DNA of 64,000 nucleotides, taken from contig CAMYYT010000002.1 in the NCBI GenBank assembly GCA_947303585.1, positions 2,326-66,325 on the forward strand, read 5' to 3'. Positions 3,952 to 53,753 of the stretch are shown piece after piece. The position numbers and the translations under genes are program-made. Position 1 is the first letter of the stretch. Every line of letters begins with the position of its first letter. Under the pieces are notes generated by a model that was given only the letters and a program-made list of their open reading frames with translations, was not told the origin of the DNA and searched no databases. The stretch is from an uncultured Pseudomonadota bacterium (GTDB lineage Bacteria; Pseudomonadota; Alphaproteobacteria; Rs-D84).

Positions 3952-5199
3952 TTAACGAACGGATGCGCTAATATTTTGTGTGCTTTTACTTGTGGCGGAT
4001 GTTCCAGGATTTACGGTTTTAGGTTGTTCTGTCCTTATTCCACGAAGTCCCAATACACAATATTGAAAATCTTCTGGGTCGGTTTTAGACCAGCATTGTG
4101 AACCATTGTTGCCCATAACACCAAATCTTAATTGTTCTTCGCTTAATGTCACTGTGCACCTTTGGTAATTTGATGATGCACTGGTCCCAGTAAACGGACA
4201 ATCATATTGTCCTTGTTCAACAGAACTTTTCCAAAAGTTCCCCCCAGGACAGAATTTTTTTGGATTGCTGCATTTCTGTTGTTGAACACTATTTGCCGGC
4301 AAATAGTAACCCTTGGTAACTTTTATAGATGTTTCTACGCACTCCGTATGGTCAGCATTAGCTTTGGTTCCAATCGGGCATTTATCACACCCATCACCAT
4401 AACCATTTGCAACATAATGTTCATCATCAAAACCATGCTCACTTGTGCAGGCGTCTTTAGGTAAAAGCTTCCCTTGGTCTACGCCTGATGCTTTATGCCA
4501 ACCCCCAAGTTTTTCGGAACCCAAACAAACATATCCCGAAGGACAAGGTGCGCATTCTTCTGTGTCTGCAGGAAGGTACGAACCGGCTAAACATTTTATA
4601 GCTCTCTCAACACATTCTGTTTGAGCTGCGTTTGGTTCTGTCCCATCTGGACACGATTCCACACCCTGATCTTCATCTTTTGGTGTTACCTTTACTTTGG
4701 TTCCAGGGCAATAATAGTTTCTAAGAGCTGGGTCCGCTTTTTCGCAATCTAAACAAAAAACACTATCTTTACAGAACACACATTCACTTTTTCCCCTTGG
4801 TAAATAGGATCCTGGGTCGCATACCAACTCTTTATAGTAAACTTTATCATCAGTAAAAATTGATTTGTAATAACATTGATCCTTCCTGCTTGAGCCTGCA
4901 TCAGAATATGGAAAATCTGCAGGGCATAAACGCCAACCACCACCATGCGTACCCCAGCTAGGCCACCTGTTCGCGCATCCGTCTTCAAACTGGCCTATTG
5001 TAACAGCTTGGTTCCCCCCGCCCTCGCAATAACATCCCGGTTTACACATGTGCCGTTGAGTGTTTAGGCAGACATAACCCGCAGGTGCTTTTTTGTTATT
5101 GCTATTACAGTATGTTGCTGTTGCATACGATGGAACGACTTGTCCGGCCGACGCCATTGTTGCGATACCTAACATCAAAAATGTACGTTTTGTGAACAT
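3952..5199 (-). CDS. Secreted cysteine-rich repeat protein (furin/ephrin-receptor-like repeats); paralog of the giant protein at 41837-47821
   Basis: Signal peptide MFTKRTFLMLGIATMASA. Repeated C..G.YLP....C..CP.G..C modules and a CPADFPYSDAGSSRKDQCYYK motif also present in the 1994-aa protein. Confidence 0.7.
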   Translation of the reverse strand: MFTKRTFLMLGIATMASAGQVVPSYATATYCNSNNKKAPAGYVCLNTQRHMCKPGCYCEGGGNQAVTIGQFEDGCANRWPSWGTHGGGWRLCPADFPYSDAGSSRKDQCYYKSIFTDDKVYYKELVCDPGSYLPRGKSECVFCKDSVFCLDCEKADPALRNYYCPGTKVKVTPKDEDQGVESCPDGTEPNAAQTECVERAIKCLAGSYLPADTEECAPCPSGYVCLGSEKLGGWHKASGVDQGKLLPKDACTSEHGFDDEHYVANGYGDGCDKCPIGTKANADHTECVETSIKVTKGYYLPANSVQQQKCSNPKKFCPGGNFWKSSVEQGQYDCPFTGTSASSNYQRCTVTLSEEQLRFGVMGNNGSQCWSKTDPEDFQYCVLGLRGIRTEQPKTVNPGTSATSKSTQNISASVR

Positions 5200-26440: not shown

Positions 26441-26734
26441 ATGTTCGGCTTAAAGAAAAAATGTGGTTGCACAAAAACAGCTGCTAAACCAGCTGCTGCA
26501 AAAAAACCAGTTGCTAAAAAAGCACCTGCAAAAAAACCAGCTGCGAAAAAAGTAGCTGCAAAAAAACCAGTTGCAAAAAAACCAGCTGCAAAAAAAGTAG
26601 TTGCAAAAAAACCAGCTGCTAAAAAAGTAGTTGCAAAAAAACCAGTTGCTAAAAAAGCACCTGCAAAAAAACCAGTTGCTAAAAAAGCACCTGCAAAAAA
26701 AACAGCTGCTAAAAAAGTAGTAAAGAAAAAATAA
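26441..26734 (+). CDS. Histone H1-like lysine/alanine-rich nucleoid protein
   Basis: 13 or more AKKPAAKK-type repeats. Strong RBS GAAAGGAGAGAA. Terminator follows. Confidence 0.75.
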
Positions 26735-41643: not shown

Positions 41644-41719
41644 GGGGTTGTAGCTCAGTTGGTAGAGCACTTGCATGGCATGCAAGGGGTCGTCAGTTCG
41701 AGTCTGATCAGCTCCACCA
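41644..41719 (+). tRNA. tRNA-Ala (anticodon GGC)
   Basis: GGGGTTG acceptor with G3:U70, anticodon loop ATGGCAT, T-loop TTCGAGT, CCA encoded. Confidence 0.85.
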
Positions 41720-41728
41720 AAAAGTTAT

Positions 41729-41806
41729 GGCGGGTGTAGCTCAGTTGGTTAGAGCGTCGGTTTGTGGTACCGAATGTCGCCAGTTCGAATCTGGTCACCC
41801 GCCCCA
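41729..41806 (+). tRNA. tRNA-His (anticodon GTG)
   Basis: Extra G-1 before GCGGGTG acceptor, anticodon loop TTGTGGT, discriminator C, CCA encoded. Confidence 0.85.
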
Positions 41807-41812
41807 TAAATA

Positions 41813-41838
41813 AAAATCGCCCATTTGGGCGATTTTTT
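41813..41838. terminator. Bidirectional rho-independent terminator
   Basis: AAAATCGCCCAtttgGGCGATTTTTT. Also overlaps the stop of the giant minus-strand gene. Confidence 0.7.
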
Positions 41839-44800
41839 AATTACCAGTTCGTATTTGCCATTTGATTTTATAACCTGTCCGGGCAGTTGCGCTGCTTGGT
41901 ATAGTCAAATGTTCATCATAATAACATTGATTGGTTTCCAGATTATTATTTCCATCATACCAAGTAATGCTGTAAGAATTCGGATTGCAAGGTGGTGCAG
42001 AATTTGGACCATAACTTCCAAACAAAGCGGTTTCGTATTCGCCATTTGAATTTTCTGGTTGGAAAAGAACTTGTATGCACCGTTCTGTGCAAGTTGTCGC
42101 ACAGCTGTTTTGGTCTCCAAAAGCATCCCAATACACCCAATTTGTATCACTGACACTCACTGCAGACGAACCATTAAGATGATATCCGGTCATATTGCAC
42201 CAACATTCTTTGCCAACGCTTAATGTATTAAATGTTCCATTGGTTTTCGGTTCAAACAAATCACCAGATGTAGAATTGCATGACGAACGTCCTTGGATTT
42301 TTGTTCCATTACTGTACACCAATTCAAAAGTTCCTTTGTTCAAACTCGTTGCATCGCCACCAAAGAATTCACCCGTTCCGCTTTGGGTTGAACTATCATT
42401 AGATTTAAATTTGGTTGCAGACAAATTCAAATTTCTAGATGCGTTTATGTAATTAACCAACGGACCATCTGACCAGGGGGTTGTTGCAGTATAACCAGCA
42501 TTGCAGGTAAATGAAGATATAGCACATGCGCCGATTGATTCTGTTTGGGCAACTGTTCCTGGATCGTATATTCTGGTTGCGGCAGTACTGTTTGCATATG
42601 TCACATTCGCACCACGCACAGGATTTATTACCGAACATAAAAGTGTCGCAGGAGATCTGTAGCAGAAAGCAACATCCCTGCTGCCAGCGTCAGAATATGG
42701 GAATTCGCTTGGGCAATCAGATAAACCTTGGGCAAAACTTACTTTTTCCCAAGTTCCGCCAGGGCACCAATGGTTTTGGGGACATGTTGCACACACTGTT
42801 GCATTTGCCGGTAAATATTCACCAGGTGCGCAAGTATACGTTGGTACCGGTGCACCACAAGATTTATTCATCCCAAATGAACCAAATTCGGGTGCTAAGG
42901 CAAGCTGCATGGCACATGCGTTTGCACATTTTTTTTCACAGATACTTATATCAATAAAGTCAGTTTTGAATAGTCTTTCTGCGGGATTTACGGATACTGT
43001 ATTGCCGCTGCCAATTTTATAACTTGTTAAATCGCAATTACAATCATATTTTCCGTTGGCATTAACAGCACACGAAGCGGTTCCGGTAATATCCAATTCA
43101 TTCCAATATACTAACCTGAATGTTCCATTTGTCATGCCGGTTGAATCTCCATAATTCCCGTTAGCACCGCTGCTGTTGTCACTACTGCCATCTATTGCAC
43201 GGTAATAAATATTATGGTTAGAAGTCGAGCTTGGCATACCATACAATGGCGATTCATAATTTGCCAAAGGTCCATCAGTTCCAACTAAAACTTCGCCTGC
43301 ATTACTGCAAGTTGCACCAGTCACCGCACAACCACCAAATGGGGTAACCACACTTCCGCCACCATAATAGTTTCTTTGTGTCACAGGACTGTTCGCATAA
43401 GATACAGATGTCGTATTTAATATTTTCACAAGCGTCGAACAGTCTACGCCTGTTTTATCGTAATAACAAAATGTAACATCTGTCGTTCCTGCATCAGAAG
43501 AAGGATGGTCATCAGGACAAGATTCTCTGCCGTAAGGTTTGTTGGCTGAGATATTGCTGGCAGGTACATCGGTAAAGCCTGGACAATAATAACCAGCCTC
43601 ACAAAGTGTACAAGTTGTTGAATTTGCCGGAAAATAATACCCGGGATCGCAAGAATAGGTTTGTTCTACGCATGCCATCTGTTCACCGTATTCCCCAATA
43701 ATATTGGTTCTGACCGTAGTGTTAGACATAAAATAGGCAACGCATTGTTCTGCGCAATTATCTGTGCAAGTAGCCGGGGACCGTATTGGTACATACACAG
43801 AATTCGCATCGTTAACAGACGTGCTGCCATTACCAATGTCATAACCCGTCATTTGACACCAGCAATACGTATCTGTGCCACCGGCTTTTGCCCCCCCAGA
43901 ATTACCAGATTTAGTTTTGGGAGTGGCTTCTTTATATTCACCAGCGCTGGTACCAGCTGTTGAATTACATGTGGCATCAAGATATATTTGGGTACCATCA
44001 CTCCACGTGATAACGGCAGTTCCATCTGTCATACCGGTTGAATCGCCAAATCCGTTTGCAACACCACTGTTTGCGCCACTGTTACCACTTGCTGCCCTAT
44101 AAAGAGTGCTACTCTTTGAAATACTGTGTGCCTGGTTGACATAGTTTGCCAATGGGCCATTTGATGATGGTTCTTTGACATATCCAGTATCACAAGACAA
44201 ACTGATAATTTCACATGCGCCAATATCTTCCGTTTCTCGACCGGCGTCACTATAAGTGATAGAGCCACTTGATGAATTTGCATAAGTCGCTGTCCCGTTT
44301 GATACAGGATTTATTTTGGAACAAGAATAACTTCCGCTGGTCGAATAACATTGTTGTAGAAAACTTGAACCTGCGTCAGAGTTTGGATATTTAACATTAC
44401 ACGCGATTTTGCCTTGATCATCACTGTCGTTATATGGATAAATTCCACCCGGACAATAGTAGTTTGCCGGACATCCGATGCAGGATGTTGCGTTTTTCGG
44501 TAAATATTGCCCCGCAGGACAAATTATTTGCATAGTTGCCGAACATTCGCCAGAACTGGCCGTCCCAGGTAAAGAATATGGTGTAGAAGTCGGACAAGGG
44601 TACAAACCTTGGTCATCGTCTTCGTCCAGTTCAACATCTGTGACACCTGGGCAATAATAATCTGATGGACAAAGCGCGCAATCTTCGGAATCAGCAGGTA
44701 AATAATAACCTGCATCACAACTGTATGTGAATCCTTGGGGACCTTTGGCACCGTATTTAAAATTACCACCATTACAAGATTTCGCCTTTGGGCAAGATTG

Positions 44801-47800
44801 ACATTTTGTACTTTTTTCTGGCAAATATTCGCCTGCCTCACATTTCGCAGCATAACAATCATCGGCACTTTTTGCACCCAAATCAGACAAAGGGTTGTTT
44901 GAATCTACTTTGGAACATTCGGACAGTCCTTGGTCTTCTTTGTCGTTAAAAGATAATCCTTTGGCACCACTGCAAAAATACCCTTCCCAACAAGGGTCAC
45001 ATTGTGTGCTGCCAGCTTTTAAAAGTTCACCTTCGGCACAATTAATTGTTGCGCTGCATTGTGTGGACGAAGTGGCACCCGCCGGTGAAAACGGTGTTGA
45101 TGTATCGCATTTCGTTATACCTTGGGTTGAAGTGTTATTGGTAAATGTCCCCCCAACACAATAATTTCCCGACGGGCATATGCTGCATACAAATGTTCCG
45201 CCCCCCAGATACGTTCCTGCCAAACAAACAAGGTTTGCCTTGCAATCGCTGCTATCGTCAGAACCAGATTCCGAGAACGGGCTTGTTGTTGGGCATTTTT
45301 CTATACCTTGGTCGTTTGTTTCGCTATATGAATATTTCCCCCCTTTGCAATAAGAACCGGATGGACAAATGTCGCATTTATCAAAGCCCATTGGCAAATA
45401 ATACCCAGTCTCGCAATCAATAGTGTCTGTCTTGGCATAACAATCACTTTCGCCTTTTGCACCCGGGTTTGAATAAGGTGCTGTTGTTGGGCATTGGCTT
45501 AAGCCCTGATCTTTATCCTGACCTTTGTAAAATCCGCCACCTTTGCAATAATATCCTCCCAAACATTCTGCGCATTCATAATCTTTATCTTTTGGCAGAT
45601 ATTCCCCAGCGTTGCAAGTGATGTCGTATATCGTGGCATAACAATCACTTTCACTTTTTGCACCCGGGTTTGAATAAGGTGCTGTTGTTGGGCATTGGTC
45701 TAAGCCATGTTCTTTGTCATCTGGGGTCCATGTGCCACCTTTGCAGTAATATTTTATCCAACATGTTTCACATTTATTGTCCTTGGATAAAAATTCCCCA
45801 GCGCTGCAAGTGATGTCGGTTGTCTTGGCATAACAATCACCATCGCCTTTTGCACCTTTATCAGAATAAGGTTTGTCATCTGGGCATTGGGTTAAACCTT
45901 GGTGGTTTTTATCGTCATACGAATAAGGGCTTTTTGTTCCATCACAATAATAGCCTTCCCAACAAGATTCACAATCTGTTTTTTCTACGGGCAAAAATTC
46001 ACCTTCGGCACAATTAATTGTTGCACTGCATTGTGTGGACGAAGTGGCACCCGCCGGTGAAAACGGTGTTGATGTATCGCATTTCGTTATACCTTGGGTT
46101 GAAGTGTTATTGGTAAATGTCCCCCCAACACAATAATTTCCCGACGGGCATATGCTGCATACAAATGTTCCGCCCCCCAGATACGTTCCTGCCAAACAAA
46201 CAAGGTTTGCCTTGCAATCGCTGCTATCGTCAGAACCAGATTCCGAGAACGGGCTTGTTGTTGGGCATTTTTCTATACCTTGGTCGTTTGTTTCGCTATA
46301 TGGATATTTTCCCCCTTTGCAATAAGAACCAGCAGGACAAGTTCTACAATCGGAGTATGAAAAGGCCGGCAAAAATTCACCCGCTTTACATGTGACCGTG
46401 TCAAAGCAAGAATTTTCATCCGAAGCGCCGATTTTTGAGTAAGGTGCTGTTGTTGGACATTTTTCTATACCTTGATCTTTGGTATTATCAACCGTAACAC
46501 CCTTAATACCACTGCAATAAGAACCAATCGGACAAATGACGCATTTGTTATCGCCTTTGGGTAAATAAGACCCAGTGTCACAACCAATAGTGTCTGTCTT
46601 GGCATAACAATCACCTTTGCCTTTTGCACCTTTATCAGAATAAGGTGTTGCCTCTGGACATTGGTTTAAGCCATGTTCTTTGTCATCTGGGGTCCACGTG
46701 CCACCTTTGCAGTAATAATTTGCCCAACATGTTTCACATTTATTGTCCTTGGATAAAAATTCCCCCGCACCGCAAGTGATGTCGGTTGTCTTGCCATAAC
46801 AATCACCTTCGCCTTTCGCACCTTTATCAGAATAAGGTGCTGTTGTTGGGCATTGGGTTAAACCTTGGTCGTTTTTATCATCATACGAATAAGGGCTTTT
46901 TGTTCCATCACAAAAATATCCTTCCTGACAATCTGTGCACTGAATACCACCTTTCGCCAAAAATACACCGGCACCACAATCAATTGTCGCGCTGCATTGT
47001 GTGGACGAAGTAGCGCCGTCCGGTGAAAACGGTGTCGCGGTATCGCATTTCGTCATACCTTGGGTTGCGGTGTTATTGGTAAATGTTCCGCCACTGCACC
47101 AATAACCAGCCGGACAAGTTGAACAGGTTAGCATGCTTTCCCCCAGATACGTTCCTGCCAAACAAACAAGGTTTGCCTTGCAATCGCTGCTATCGTCAGA
47201 ACCAGATTCCGAGAACGGGCTTGTTGTTGGACATTGTTCTATACCTTGGTCGCCTGTTTCACTATATGGGTATTTTCCCCCTTTGCAATAAGAACCTGCA
47301 GGACAAGTTTTACAATCAGAGTATGAAAAGGCCGGCAAAAATTCACCATTCTTACATGTGGTCGTGTCAAAGCAAGAATTTTCATCTGAAGAGCCGATTT
47401 TTGAGTAAGGTGCTGTTGTTGGGCATTTTTCTATACCTTGGTCTTTGGTATTATCAACCGTAACACCCTTAATACCACTGCAATAAGAACCAATCGGACA
47501 AATGACGCATTTGTTATCGCCTTTGGGTAAATAAGACCCAGTGTCACAACCAATAGTGTCTGTCTTGGCATAACAATCACCTTTGCCTTTTGCACCTTTA
47601 TCAGAATAAGGTGTTGCCTCTGGACATTGGTTTAAGCCATGTTCTTTGTCATCTGGGGTCCACGTGCCACCTTTGCAGTAATAATTTTCCCGACACGTTT
47701 CGCATCCGCCTTCTTTACTTAAAAATTCCCCCGCGTCACAAGTGATGTCGGCACCAAATGCATTAAATGTAAACAAACTAAACAAAGCCAAAAGTGGCGT

Positions 47801-47821
47801 TAACAGTATGATTTTACGCAT
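41837..47821 (-). CDS. Giant secreted cysteine-rich repeat protein (1994 aa), with furin-like/ephrin-receptor-like (GCC2_GCC3-type) repeats in the N-terminal half and CWC-motif modules in the C-terminal half
   Basis: Signal peptide MRKIILLTPLLALFSLFTFNAFGA. Dozens of C..G.Y(L/C)....C..CP.G.YC.GG and QG(I/L).(Q/K)CP...P(Y/F)S..G modules. Three about 322-aa super-repeats. Confidence 0.8.
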   Translation of the reverse strand: MRKIILLTPLLALFSLFTFNAFGADITCDAGEFLSKEGGCETCRENYYCKGGTWTPDDKEHGLNQCPEATPYSDKGAKGKGDCYAKTDTIGCDTGSYLPKGDNKCVICPIGSYCSGIKGVTVDNTKDQGIEKCPTTAPYSKIGSSDENSCFDTTTCKNGEFLPAFSYSDCKTCPAGSYCKGGKYPYSETGDQGIEQCPTTSPFSESGSDDSSDCKANLVCLAGTYLGESMLTCSTCPAGYWCSGGTFTNNTATQGMTKCDTATPFSPDGATSSTQCSATIDCGAGVFLAKGGIQCTDCQEGYFCDGTKSPYSYDDKNDQGLTQCPTTAPYSDKGAKGEGDCYGKTTDITCGAGEFLSKDNKCETCWANYYCKGGTWTPDDKEHGLNQCPEATPYSDKGAKGKGDCYAKTDTIGCDTGSYLPKGDNKCVICPIGSYCSGIKGVTVDNTKDQGIEKCPTTAPYSKIGASDENSCFDTVTCKAGEFLPAFSYSDCRTCPAGSYCKGGKYPYSETNDQGIEKCPTTSPFSESGSDDSSDCKANLVCLAGTYLGGGTFVCSICPSGNYCVGGTFTNNTSTQGITKCDTSTPFSPAGATSSTQCSATINCAEGEFLPVEKTDCESCWEGYYCDGTKSPYSYDDKNHQGLTQCPDDKPYSDKGAKGDGDCYAKTTDITCSAGEFLSKDNKCETCWIKYYCKGGTWTPDDKEHGLDQCPTTAPYSNPGAKSESDCYATIYDITCNAGEYLPKDKDYECAECLGGYYCKGGGFYKGQDKDQGLSQCPTTAPYSNPGAKGESDCYAKTDTIDCETGYYLPMGFDKCDICPSGSYCKGGKYSYSETNDQGIEKCPTTSPFSESGSDDSSDCKANLVCLAGTYLGGGTFVCSICPSGNYCVGGTFTNNTSTQGITKCDTSTPFSPAGATSSTQCSATINCAEGELLKAGSTQCDPCWEGYFCSGAKGLSFNDKEDQGLSECSKVDSNNPLSDLGAKSADDCYAAKCEAGEYLPEKSTKCQSCPKAKSCNGGNFKYGAKGPQGFTYSCDAGYYLPADSEDCALCPSDYYCPGVTDVELDEDDDQGLYPCPTSTPYSLPGTASSGECSATMQIICPAGQYLPKNATSCIGCPANYYCPGGIYPYNDSDDQGKIACNVKYPNSDAGSSFLQQCYSTSGSYSCSKINPVSNGTATYANSSSGSITYSDAGRETEDIGACEIISLSCDTGYVKEPSSNGPLANYVNQAHSISKSSTLYRAASGNSGANSGVANGFGDSTGMTDGTAVITWSDGTQIYLDATCNSTAGTSAGEYKEATPKTKSGNSGGAKAGGTDTYCWCQMTGYDIGNGSTSVNDANSVYVPIRSPATCTDNCAEQCVAYFMSNTTVRTNIIGEYGEQMACVEQTYSCDPGYYFPANSTTCTLCEAGYYCPGFTDVPASNISANKPYGRESCPDDHPSSDAGTTDVTFCYYDKTGVDCSTLVKILNTTSVSYANSPVTQRNYYGGGSVVTPFGGCAVTGATCSNAGEVLVGTDGPLANYESPLYGMPSSTSNHNIYYRAIDGSSDNSSGANGNYGDSTGMTNGTFRLVYWNELDITGTASCAVNANGKYDCNCDLTSYKIGSGNTVSVNPAERLFKTDFIDISICEKKCANACAMQLALAPEFGSFGMNKSCGAPVPTYTCAPGEYLPANATVCATCPQNHWCPGGTWEKVSFAQGLSDCPSEFPYSDAGSRDVAFCYRSPATLLCSVINPVRGANVTYANSTAATRIYDPGTVAQTESIGACAISSFTCNAGYTATTPWSDGPLVNYINASRNLNLSATKFKSNDSSTQSGTGEFFGGDATSLNKGTFELVYSNGTKIQGRSSCNSTSGDLFEPKTNGTFNTLSVGKECWCNMTGYHLNGSSAVSVSDTNWVYWDAFGDQNSCATTCTERCIQVLFQPENSNGEYETALFGSYGPNSAPPCNPNSYSITWYDGNNNLETNQCYYDEHLTIPSSATARTGYKIKWQIRTGN
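44900..47760. repeat. About 970-bp near-identical tandem repeats (about 3 copies) inside the giant gene
   Basis: Opposite-strand ORF fragments beginning 45145 and 46117 encode identical 62-aa peptides. A third copy sits near 47137. Period 966-972 bp. Confidence 0.8.
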
Positions 47822-47981
47822 TTTTTTCTCTTTCCTTCGTGTTTAAAACAGTATTACTTTGTTTTAAGTGTAGAAAATTTTTTATTATTTGCGCAAGTAT
47901 TTTTTTCTATTTTTATTTCTTGCTTTTGTTTTTTTTCAAATCTATAATCACGGCATCTATTTATATGAAAGGGGGCGAAGA

Positions 47982-52715: not shown

Positions 52716-53753
52716 TTACAATGTTGGTGTTAAAATATCTTGCATCTTTTTTATTTCTGCTGCGTTTTTGTTAAATAGACCTGTTGTTTTCATTTTTGCC
52801 AGTTCTATTTTTAATTGCTTTAACATCGTGCTTTGTTTGTCGTTTGTTGCTTGCAAACGATTCATTTCTTCAACCAATTTTTCGTTTTTATATTGAAGTT
52901 CTTCTTTCTCTTTACTCGTTTCGTCTAACATATTGTTGTATTGGTTGCTAATAGAGTCTTTTTCACGTGTTATTTCTTCTATACTATTACGAGCTGTTTG
53001 TAATTGTTGTTTTGTTTCTACAAGCTCTTCTTCCAAGGATTTTTGTGTGTTCGCCATGTATTCCGGGATGTTGGCAGACAAAATTTTATTAATATCAAAT
53101 TCTTTTTTTATTAGTTTTACATAATCTGGTTCTGATTCATCCAAAGGCTGTATTGCAAATTTTGCACTATCAGAAATGTTTTTCAAATTTTCAGGATTTG
53201 GAAAATCTTTGTGCATTTCTTTATCTAATTCTTGTTTACACATTTCGATTACTGTACGAATAAGGTTTTTATCACGAGAGTTCAAAGCAAGTTGAGACTT
53301 GAAACTTAGTGGCGCCAAAGGATTATTAATAATTAAAGTGCTGACAATTTTTGCATTTTTTTCACCAATTCTTTTTGAATCTGGTGTAATTTGTCGCAAA
53401 ATACTATATTGATTTTTTTCATCAAACATAGGCAGTTTGTTTAATACCAGCAATACAGAATTTTCATCGGGTTTTTCATCAAAGATACATTTAATAAAAT
53501 TCCAATAAGCCTTGAAATCTTGGGCATATTGTGATTCTGGGTTTTTATAGCAATTATATATATGTTTCCAAATATTGTTATATGTCGCATCTTGCGTATC
53601 CGTGTAACGTTCTAGTTCTTTTTCGTTCGACGGACCGTTATATGCATTTTTTCTGAATAATTCATCAATATATTCAACAAAACCTAAGGTGCGGTCAGTA
53701 CCAAATAAATCTTTGGTAAACTTATTTTTATCAAAAGTTACTTCCTGTGTCAT
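52716..53753 (-). CDS. Hypothetical protein with C-terminal coiled-coil (no signal peptide)
   Basis: 345-aa ORF. C-terminal about 90 aa heptad-rich (LEEELVETKQQLQTARNSIEEITREKD...). Confidence 0.5.
   Translation of the reverse strand: MTQEVTFDKNKFTKDLFGTDRTLGFVEYIDELFRKNAYNGPSNEKELERYTDTQDATYNNIWKHIYNCYKNPESQYAQDFKAYWNFIKCIFDEKPDENSVLLVLNKLPMFDEKNQYSILRQITPDSKRIGEKNAKIVSTLIINNPLAPLSFKSQLALNSRDKNLIRTVIEMCKQELDKEMHKDFPNPENLKNISDSAKFAIQPLDESEPDYVKLIKKEFDINKILSANIPEYMANTQKSLEEELVETKQQLQTARNSIEEITREKDSISNQYNNMLDETSKEKEELQYKNEKLVEEMNRLQATNDKQSTMLKQLKIELAKMKTTGLFNKNAAEIKKMQDILTPTL

Follow-up and report, generated by a model that had tools for sequence, protein, structure and literature searches.

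Mosaic two-level repeats in a giant cysteine-rich protein gene of Candidatus Enterousia

The stretch of DNA analysed here (the window) is 64,000 nucleotides (nt) of contig CAMYYT010000002.1, from an organism that is a Candidatus Enterousia (order Rs-D84), a reduced-genome alphaproteobacterium of gut or rumen. It carries a giant gene whose product begins with three in-frame tandem super-repeats, each a string of small cysteine-rich modules. The super-repeats are mosaics: perfectly identical tracts alternate with diverged sequence, synonymous divergence is heterogeneous along the unit, and related genes at the same syntenic locus differ in length by blocks of module size. We consider it probable that the array is old and has been overwritten in places by gene conversion within the gene or by unequal recombination, and that it makes up the stalk at the N-terminus of a protein that is secreted and probably displayed at the surface.

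Organization of the gene and its product

The protein, for which an identical entry, encoded on a 68.2-kb contig, is present in NCBI/ENA, runs from an N-terminal signal peptide through about 17 Cys-rich modules and three repeats of a module followed by a domain of about 225 amino acids (aa) to a short tail. A module spans about 64 aa, and its six cysteines follow the pattern C-x(9-13)-CxxC-x(4-5)-[YWF]C...QG...C...C. Five module types, A to E, make up one super-repeat, and the gene holds three of these (units U1 to U3). The parts of the gene, an open reading frame (ORF) on the minus strand, are as follows.

41837–47821, minus strand: giant gene, uninterrupted ORF of 5985 nt, 1994 aa, 7.5% Cys
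47753–47821, minus strand: signal peptide, MRKIILLTPLLALFSLFTFNAFG, putative cleavage after AFG, placed by eye
46775–47740, minus strand: unit U1, aa 28–349, modules A1 B1 C1 D1 E1, 322 aa, 966 nt
45809–46774, minus strand: unit U2, aa 350–671, modules A2 B2 C2 D2 E2, 322 aa, 966 nt
44837–45808, minus strand: unit U3, aa 672–995, 324 aa, 972 nt
44351–44836, minus strand: degenerate Cys-rich modules, aa 996–1157, with sub-threshold Ephrin_rec_like and NCD3G matches
43670–44350, minus strand: C-terminal domain copy 1, aa 1158–1384
42857–43468, minus strand: C-terminal domain copy 2, aa 1452–1655
41987–42664, minus strand: C-terminal domain copy 3, aa 1720–1945, the copy modelled below

The C-terminal domains also contain cysteine. 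The signal peptide is without a lipobox cysteine, and the first 27 aa, which reach four residues beyond it, match those of the relative on contig L004 at 100% and those of the homologue P0009 at 96% (L numbers denote contigs, P numbers proteins). Reading of the sequence by eye revealed no transmembrane segment or cytoplasmic tail. A scan for promoters and terminators was uninformative, with 22 promoter-like sites against 14.8 ± 4.4 expected.

Super-repeats and exact tracts

In a self-dotplot of the gene, 200-nt dotplot windows matched at all 200 positions at the offsets of 966 and 972 bp and at 169 of 200 at 1938 bp, and a repeat search likewise returned three copies, spaced 972 and 966 bp apart. 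The units of about 970 bp were missed by Tandem Repeats Finder (TRF) because its longest period is 500. The dotplot had been named as the check in an earlier note on this DNA, and its off-diagonals bear out that the repeat is real. That note had started from identical 62-aa peptides on the opposite strand, 972 bp apart, with a third, diverging copy farther on, and had deduced tandem super-repeats of about 322 aa, in frame within one long gene. All of this holds: the two plus-strand ORFs match over their first 62 aa, the third copy lies inside another plus-strand ORF, and the units measure 322, 322 and 324 aa. The antisense ORFs themselves are read as non-coding shadows, because the 1994-aa ORF, which has conserved homologues, encloses them completely.

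The note had also called the units near-identical, which is true of patches but not of whole units. Over their full length, U1 and U2 are 88% identical at the nucleotide level, U2 and U3 78%, and U1 and U3 71%, and identity per 60 nt ranges from 49% to 100%. The patches include the following exact tracts.

47442–47687, minus strand: exact tract of 246 nt in U1, most of A and the start of B, identical to 46476–46721 in U2
46476–46721, minus strand: partner of the 246-nt tract in U2
46026–46302, minus strand: exact tract of 277 nt in U2, covering D almost completely together with the 3' part of C, beginning within a module, identical to 45054–45330 in U3
45054–45330, minus strand: partner of the 277-nt tract in U3, including the stretch from which the earlier note started
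47140–47230, minus strand: 91-nt stretch identical in U1, U2 and U3, with the other copies at 46174–46264 and 45202–45292
45428–45856, minus strand: local array found by TRF, 201-bp period, 2.2 copies, 77% identity, covering A3, X3 and the start of H3
45145–45423, plus strand: antisense ORF, 92 aa, with a twin at 46117–46395 and a diverged copy within the ORF at 47083–47463

When the differences between units were shuffled 20,000 times as a control for chance, the longest tracts obtained were 104, 58 and 42 nt, compared with the observed 246, 277 and 91 nt. Despite whole-unit identities of 71–88%, the exact tracts give copies similar enough for RecA-type recombination.

The third unit departs from the first two in content. 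It consists of A3, an extra A-like module (X3), a module termed H3, a D3 equal to D2, and a strongly diverged E3. The 3' part of H3 is 96% identical to C2 and its 5' part is divergent. An origin of H3 as a clean product of crossover between B and C was considered and is not established, the 5' part showing a weak preference for B (72%, versus 65–68% for C). The 201-bp array in the same region shows duplication at the scale of a single module.

Synonymous divergence and the age of the array

Synonymous divergence (dS) was estimated module by module between neighbouring units. With about 40 synonymous sites per module the single values listed here are noisy, which weighs against leaning on any one of them, and the overall pattern is consistent notwithstanding.

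U1/U2: A 0.21, B 0.07, C 0.18, D about 0.65, E 0.27
U2/U3: A 0.37, B 1.58, C 0.41, D 0.02, E 0.91

The spread along the unit is thus more than 50-fold, from 0.02 to 1.58 within U2/U3 alone, and it is impossible to assign a single date of duplication because per-module dS within one pair of units varies so widely. Comparison with P0002, a homologue that also has three units of about 960 bp, adds a second scale. D1 and D2 are separated by a dS of about 0.64, and D1 and the D modules of P0002 by 0.57–0.72; A3 lies at a dS of 0.21 from module 11 of P0002 and at 0.62 from A1. Since some modules of the window are as near to P0002 modules as to each other, the array looks older than the split of these alleles. 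P0002 in turn has a homogenised pair of its own (B modules 2 and 13, dS 0.00), and such recent identity tracts, present in each lineage, look like the mark of concerted evolution, whether through gene conversion or through unequal exchange.

The "recent expansion" of near-identical units proposed in the earlier note finds no support in these values, namely the width of the dS spread, the equal distance of D1 from D2 and from the P0002 D modules, and the closeness of A3 to P0002. Under a related explanation, a 966-bp unit would have been triplicated in tandem once and recently, and the copies would then have diverged quickly and unevenly, as under positive selection on exposed loops. This would account for the youth of modules A–C in U1/U2 (dS 0.07–0.21), the ratio of nonsynonymous to synonymous divergence of about 0.8 in module E of the same pair, and the concentration of differences in the C1–C4 half of the modules. 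However, selection at the protein level leaves the 50-fold synonymous spread unexplained. The positions of D1 and of A3 relative to P0002, the different module composition of U3, and the three-unit layout in common with P0002 count against it as well, and we regard a recent triplication as quite improbable.

Locus, alleles and length variation

The giant gene occupies a slot with a SIMPL-domain gene on one side, beyond which lie ligA and a penicillin-binding protein (PBP) gene, and frr-uppS-cdsA-rseP-bamA on the other. Eight genes were placed in this slot, those of the window, L001 (P0002), L002/L003 (P0005), L078/L079 (P0006), L080 (P0009) and L004. The gene frr itself is seen in the window, L001, L079 and L080, the contigs L002, L003, L004 and L078 stopping before it; in L004 the giant gene abuts the SIMPL-domain gene. 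Homologues P0002–P0011 have the modules, the signal peptide and the locus in common with the window gene.

The proteins encoded in the slot range from 1601 to 2730 aa, and the module strings of the window protein and of four homologues read as follows.

Window: ABCDE ABCDE A a C D e
P0002: abCDE ABCDE A A bcde ...
P0003: ... E BCDE A A bcde ...
P0004: ABCDE BC B cde ...
P0009: ABC d ...

Identity between P0005 and P0006 is 80.6%, and the two differ by one gap of 251 aa, equal to four modules of 62–63 aa (a 186/189-bp array), and P0002 and P0009 differ in length by 703 aa, or about 11 modules. The description of the array as a "hotspot for length variation" is therefore borne out at the level of the locus, in that both pairs differ by blocks that fit whole modules. 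Super-repeats recur in L001, which has three with a spacing of 957–1155 bp and 72–94% identity, and in L004, with a spacing of about 957–963 bp. The two A-like modules that open U3 were considered as a feature common to P0002, and this idea was dropped, X3 matching best the first module of P0002, not the twelfth. A different kind of expansion is found in L002 (7477–8685), where a single 186/189-bp module is present in six copies of 66–88% identity; the relative P0006 has four modules fewer.

The window gene is also chimeric. On the N-terminal side, aa 1–1157 resemble P0002, P0004 and L004 (60–73% aa identity over U1–U3 and 46–49% over aa 996–1157), and on the C-terminal side aa 1158–1994 resemble P0005 and P0006 (best 64–77% aa identity per segment). 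Both flanks belong to the genome type of L002, L078 and L079, at 93–96.5% nt identity. Against L002 in particular the flanks are 95.5% identical and the C-terminal part of the gene 74%, and window positions 44239–47745 (U1–U3 and about 0.6 kb beyond) have no nucleotide match in L002. The breakpoints on the giant gene are:

near 47745: chimera breakpoint
near 44350: chimera breakpoint

This chimeric structure could reflect real recombination between lineages or, less likely, a double misjoin in assembly.

Of the 74 Enterousia genomes that represent species, L004 alone carries the Cys-rich gene at this place. In 23 other species genomes frr lies 0.5–5.9 kb from the SIMPL-domain gene, and the longer of these gaps hold ORFs unlike the giant gene. 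The slot (41686–47981 in the window, with its counterparts in L005–L077) is a variable island across Enterousia species, and the giant gene is accessory. In L001 (14354–14918) and L080 (7255–7693), a GIY-YIG/T5orf172 gene and a small ORF separate the giant gene from frr, and the window lacks both.

Possible contribution of the assembly

Another explanation is that the locus is in part an artefact of short-read metagenome assembly from a mixed Enterousia population, which might have produced a wrong number or order of units, made the tracts perfect or joined two allele types. At 246 and 277 nt, the exact repeats are longer than the k-mers in common use and longer than about two reads. An assembler that merged near-identical repeats and walked the merged stretch twice would create artificially exact tracts, and this possibility also tells against the recombination reading. 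Further circumstantial evidence is that exact internal repeats reach 277 nt in the window and 191 nt in L001, whose name is of the scaffold type, but no more than 67 nt in any of the four k141_ contigs, a naming that we take to be MEGAHIT output with k = 141. Two allele types do occur in one sample (ERZ27257298 has both P0005 and P0009), and the window gene is itself a chimera between two allele classes.

A wholesale artefact, on the other hand, is argued against by the intact 5985-nt ORF with each unit in frame, by the comparable super-repeats of about 960 bp that were assembled independently in L001 and L004, and by the syntenic flanks. Since the two flanks are of a single genome type, only a pair of misjoins, the second undoing the first, could produce such an artefact. 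In addition, neither half of the gene is close to any known allele (60–77% aa identity). On this evidence we judge a partial artefact unlikely, with collapse at the exact tracts remaining plausible from the sequence. Three should be taken as the minimum number of units, and the 100% identity of the tracts as "at least very high".

Module fold and relatives

The scan of window ORFs against protein families covered 35.9–54.9 kb. The family DUF7631 (PF24634) was matched above its gathering threshold of 27 bits, at 35 bits for the whole protein and 37.9 bits for U2, the best stretch covering only positions 4–18 of the 50 in the profile. Ephrin_rec_like/GCC2_GCC3 (PF07699) stayed below its threshold of 23.1 bits, with 14.7 bits for U2 and 17.0 bits for aa 996–1157; the distant homologues P0012 and P0017 carry a precomputed match to it. 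Flg_new, the InlB B-repeat family (PF09479), gave no hmmscan match in the protein, C-terminal tail included, at E-values up to 1, and is recorded only for the homologues P0002–P0004, P0009, P0013 and P0016. Matches to the NCBIfam MiiA motif (14.7 bits, cutoff 24) and to DOMON (14–18 bits, cutoff 32.7) were dropped. A literature search found no papers on DUF7631 and nothing relevant on MiiA.

A module model built with AlphaFold2 (AF2) from a 74-sequence alignment of module pairs reached a predicted local distance difference test score (pLDDT) of 96.4, and the module profile matches ELAPOR1 in the PDB with E = 4.5e-7. Structural neighbours of the model found by Foldseek are a Chlamydomonas mastigoneme protein, cysteine-rich domains (CRDs) of TNFR, Elapor1, and CRDs of EphA2 and CaSR, at template modelling (TM) scores no higher than 0.40. 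The modelled module is consistent with a TNFR/ephrin-receptor-like cysteine-rich fold. The AF2 model of the C-terminal domain (copy 3) has a pLDDT of 88.5, and Foldseek found no neighbour for it in the PDB (best E 0.9, TM score at most 0.16).

Against 1.84 billion representative proteins, the module profile matched 2704 at E ≤ 0.001 and 166 at E ≤ 1e-30. Ten top matches were looked up; two were named proteins from metagenome-assembled genomes (MAGs) of Alphaproteobacteria and three were eukaryotic repeat proteins, the latter being giant proteins (>6000 aa) of Chromosphaera and Kipferlia and a 1836-aa PCSK5-like protein of Mya.

The window also holds a second module-bearing protein, of 415 aa (3952–5199, minus strand), encoded by an intact ORF and consisting of an N-terminal hydrophobic leader and Cys-rich modules of the form CxxGxYLP...CxxC. 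Since it has the modules of the giant gene, the genome appears to carry a small family of such proteins.

Recombination and surface variation

Concerning the mechanism, we infer that homologous recombination between misaligned units would keep acting on the array. Non-reciprocal gene conversion would overwrite stretches and so produce the exact tracts of 246 nt (U1 = U2) and 277 nt (U2 = U3), with ends that fall within modules. Unequal crossing-over would add or remove whole modules or units, giving stalks whose length differs among lineages. Whole-segment exchange between lineages would bring together an N-terminal half from one allele class and a C-terminal half from another. The product may be a secreted, disulfide-stabilised rod of variable reach, which presents either the C-terminal domains or its own modules. 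Such a rod might act as an adhesin or an exposed antigen, with variation in stalk length, epitopes or partner binding.

Besides the noise in single dS values and the possible effect of repeat merging, several points weigh against this reading. No second strain with the window allele was found, the next relative being 58% identical, and a scan of Joint Genome Institute (JGI) metagenomes with the whole protein matched 15 pattern stretches and no relatives. Length differences that fit whole modules are seen among related alleles, and copy-number polymorphism of the window's own array is therefore putative. Every Foldseek E-value for the module is 0.04 or worse. The family scans detected no known outer-membrane anchor or secretion domain in the giant protein, and the sole pointer to its putative surface location is the signal peptide.

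Programmed variation, by cassette-type gene conversion from silent copies or by a diversity-generating retroelement acting on the repeats, was also considered. The only lead in its favour is the mosaic pattern at a hypervariable locus. A search of both strands of the 64-kb window found no copy of any repeat segment beyond the gene, the sole other module-bearing ORF there is the intact, separate 415-aa gene, and no pair of template and variable repeats was seen. The family scan that could reveal a reverse transcriptase covered 35.9–54.9 kb. We consider this explanation very improbable indeed.

Patching of an old array by recombination places the protein in a familiar category, that of the repeat-variable surface protein with concerted evolution; what is unusual is the two-level repeat and the eukaryote-like modules in an uncharacterised family. 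Size-variable tandem-repeat surface proteins are represented by alpha C/Rib of group B Streptococcus, SasG/Aap of staphylococci and Vlp/Vsa of Mycoplasma, in which homologous recombination changes the number of repeats and thereby the length of the protein, and conversion keeps the copies alike. In these proteins each repeat is usually a single domain, with identity between copies above 95% over the whole repeat. The window protein shares with them long in-frame tandem repeats and, judging by its signal peptide, secretion. Unlike theirs, its unit is a super-repeat of five modules, 71–88% identical with embedded exact tracts; its fold is predicted to be disulfide-rich and TNFR/ephrin-receptor-like; and its host is a diderm alphaproteobacterium, with neither an LPXTG nor a lipoprotein anchor on the protein.

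With eukaryotic ELAPOR1, the Cys-rich region of PCSK5, SCUBE, the Chlamydomonas mastigoneme protein Mst1 and the Cys-rich surface proteins of Giardia and Kipferlia, the window protein has in common a six-Cys module with the motif CxxGxY...CxxC. It differs from eukaryotic furin-like, PF07699 and TNFR repeats in being bacterial, in its sub-threshold PF07699 score, and in a module length of about 64 aa compared with the 48 positions of the Pfam model. A further comparison is with the DUF7631 family and with uncharacterised giant proteins from Rs-D84/Alphaproteobacteria MAGs, some of them named 'InlB B-repeat-containing protein' at NCBI. The homologues P0002–P0011 have the modules, the signal peptide and the locus; unlike some of the homologues, the window protein has no PF09479 detectable by hmmscan.

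More broadly, and only tentatively, Enterousia, which probably depends on partner organisms, may reserve a single fixed place, the slot from the SIMPL-domain gene to frr, for a hypervariable surface protein of eukaryote-like Cys-rich modules. Gene conversion within the gene, unequal crossing-over and inter-lineage exchange would go on reshuffling these modules, so as to vary or mimic the surface facing a host or partner. We find this wider proposal doubtful as it stands. If it were true, the protein would be a bacterial counterpart of the Giardia-like variant surface proteins, with a triple C-terminal domain that is without detectable relatives among solved structures. Because the neighbours of the slot are 95% identical while the gene is unalignable, the giant gene is likely an interface with whatever the bacterium attaches to, and therefore a good first target in finding the partner or host of Candidatus Enterousia. 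Enterousia genomes are smaller than 1 Mb and metabolically dependent, lacking the TCA (tricarboxylic acid) cycle and respiration, and dependence on the surroundings has been proposed (PMC12306168).

The giant gene takes up roughly 0.6–0.7% of a genome of less than 1 Mb. The locus offers a clean example of patchwise concerted evolution on a two-level repeat. It also bears on what metagenomes recover. Assemblies limited by k-mer size probably contain too few of the alleles that have long exact repeats, and assemblies of the k141_ type would break at alleles with longer exact repeats.

Other features of the window

Two further ORFs of the window may be mentioned. On the minus strand at 52716–53753, between the PBP gene and an LPG_synthase_TM gene, lies a 345-aa ORF with no Pfam match and a GC content of about 30%, compared with 38% for the window. 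L002 lacks this ORF although the sequence to either side of it is about 95% identical there, which suggests a strain-specific insertion. On the plus strand at 26441–26734 lies a 97-aa ORF that consists almost wholly of a 15-bp repeat in about 17 copies and encodes a small, very basic, low-complexity protein rich in Lys and Ala (AKKPAAKK type) and resembling histone H1 or AlgP.

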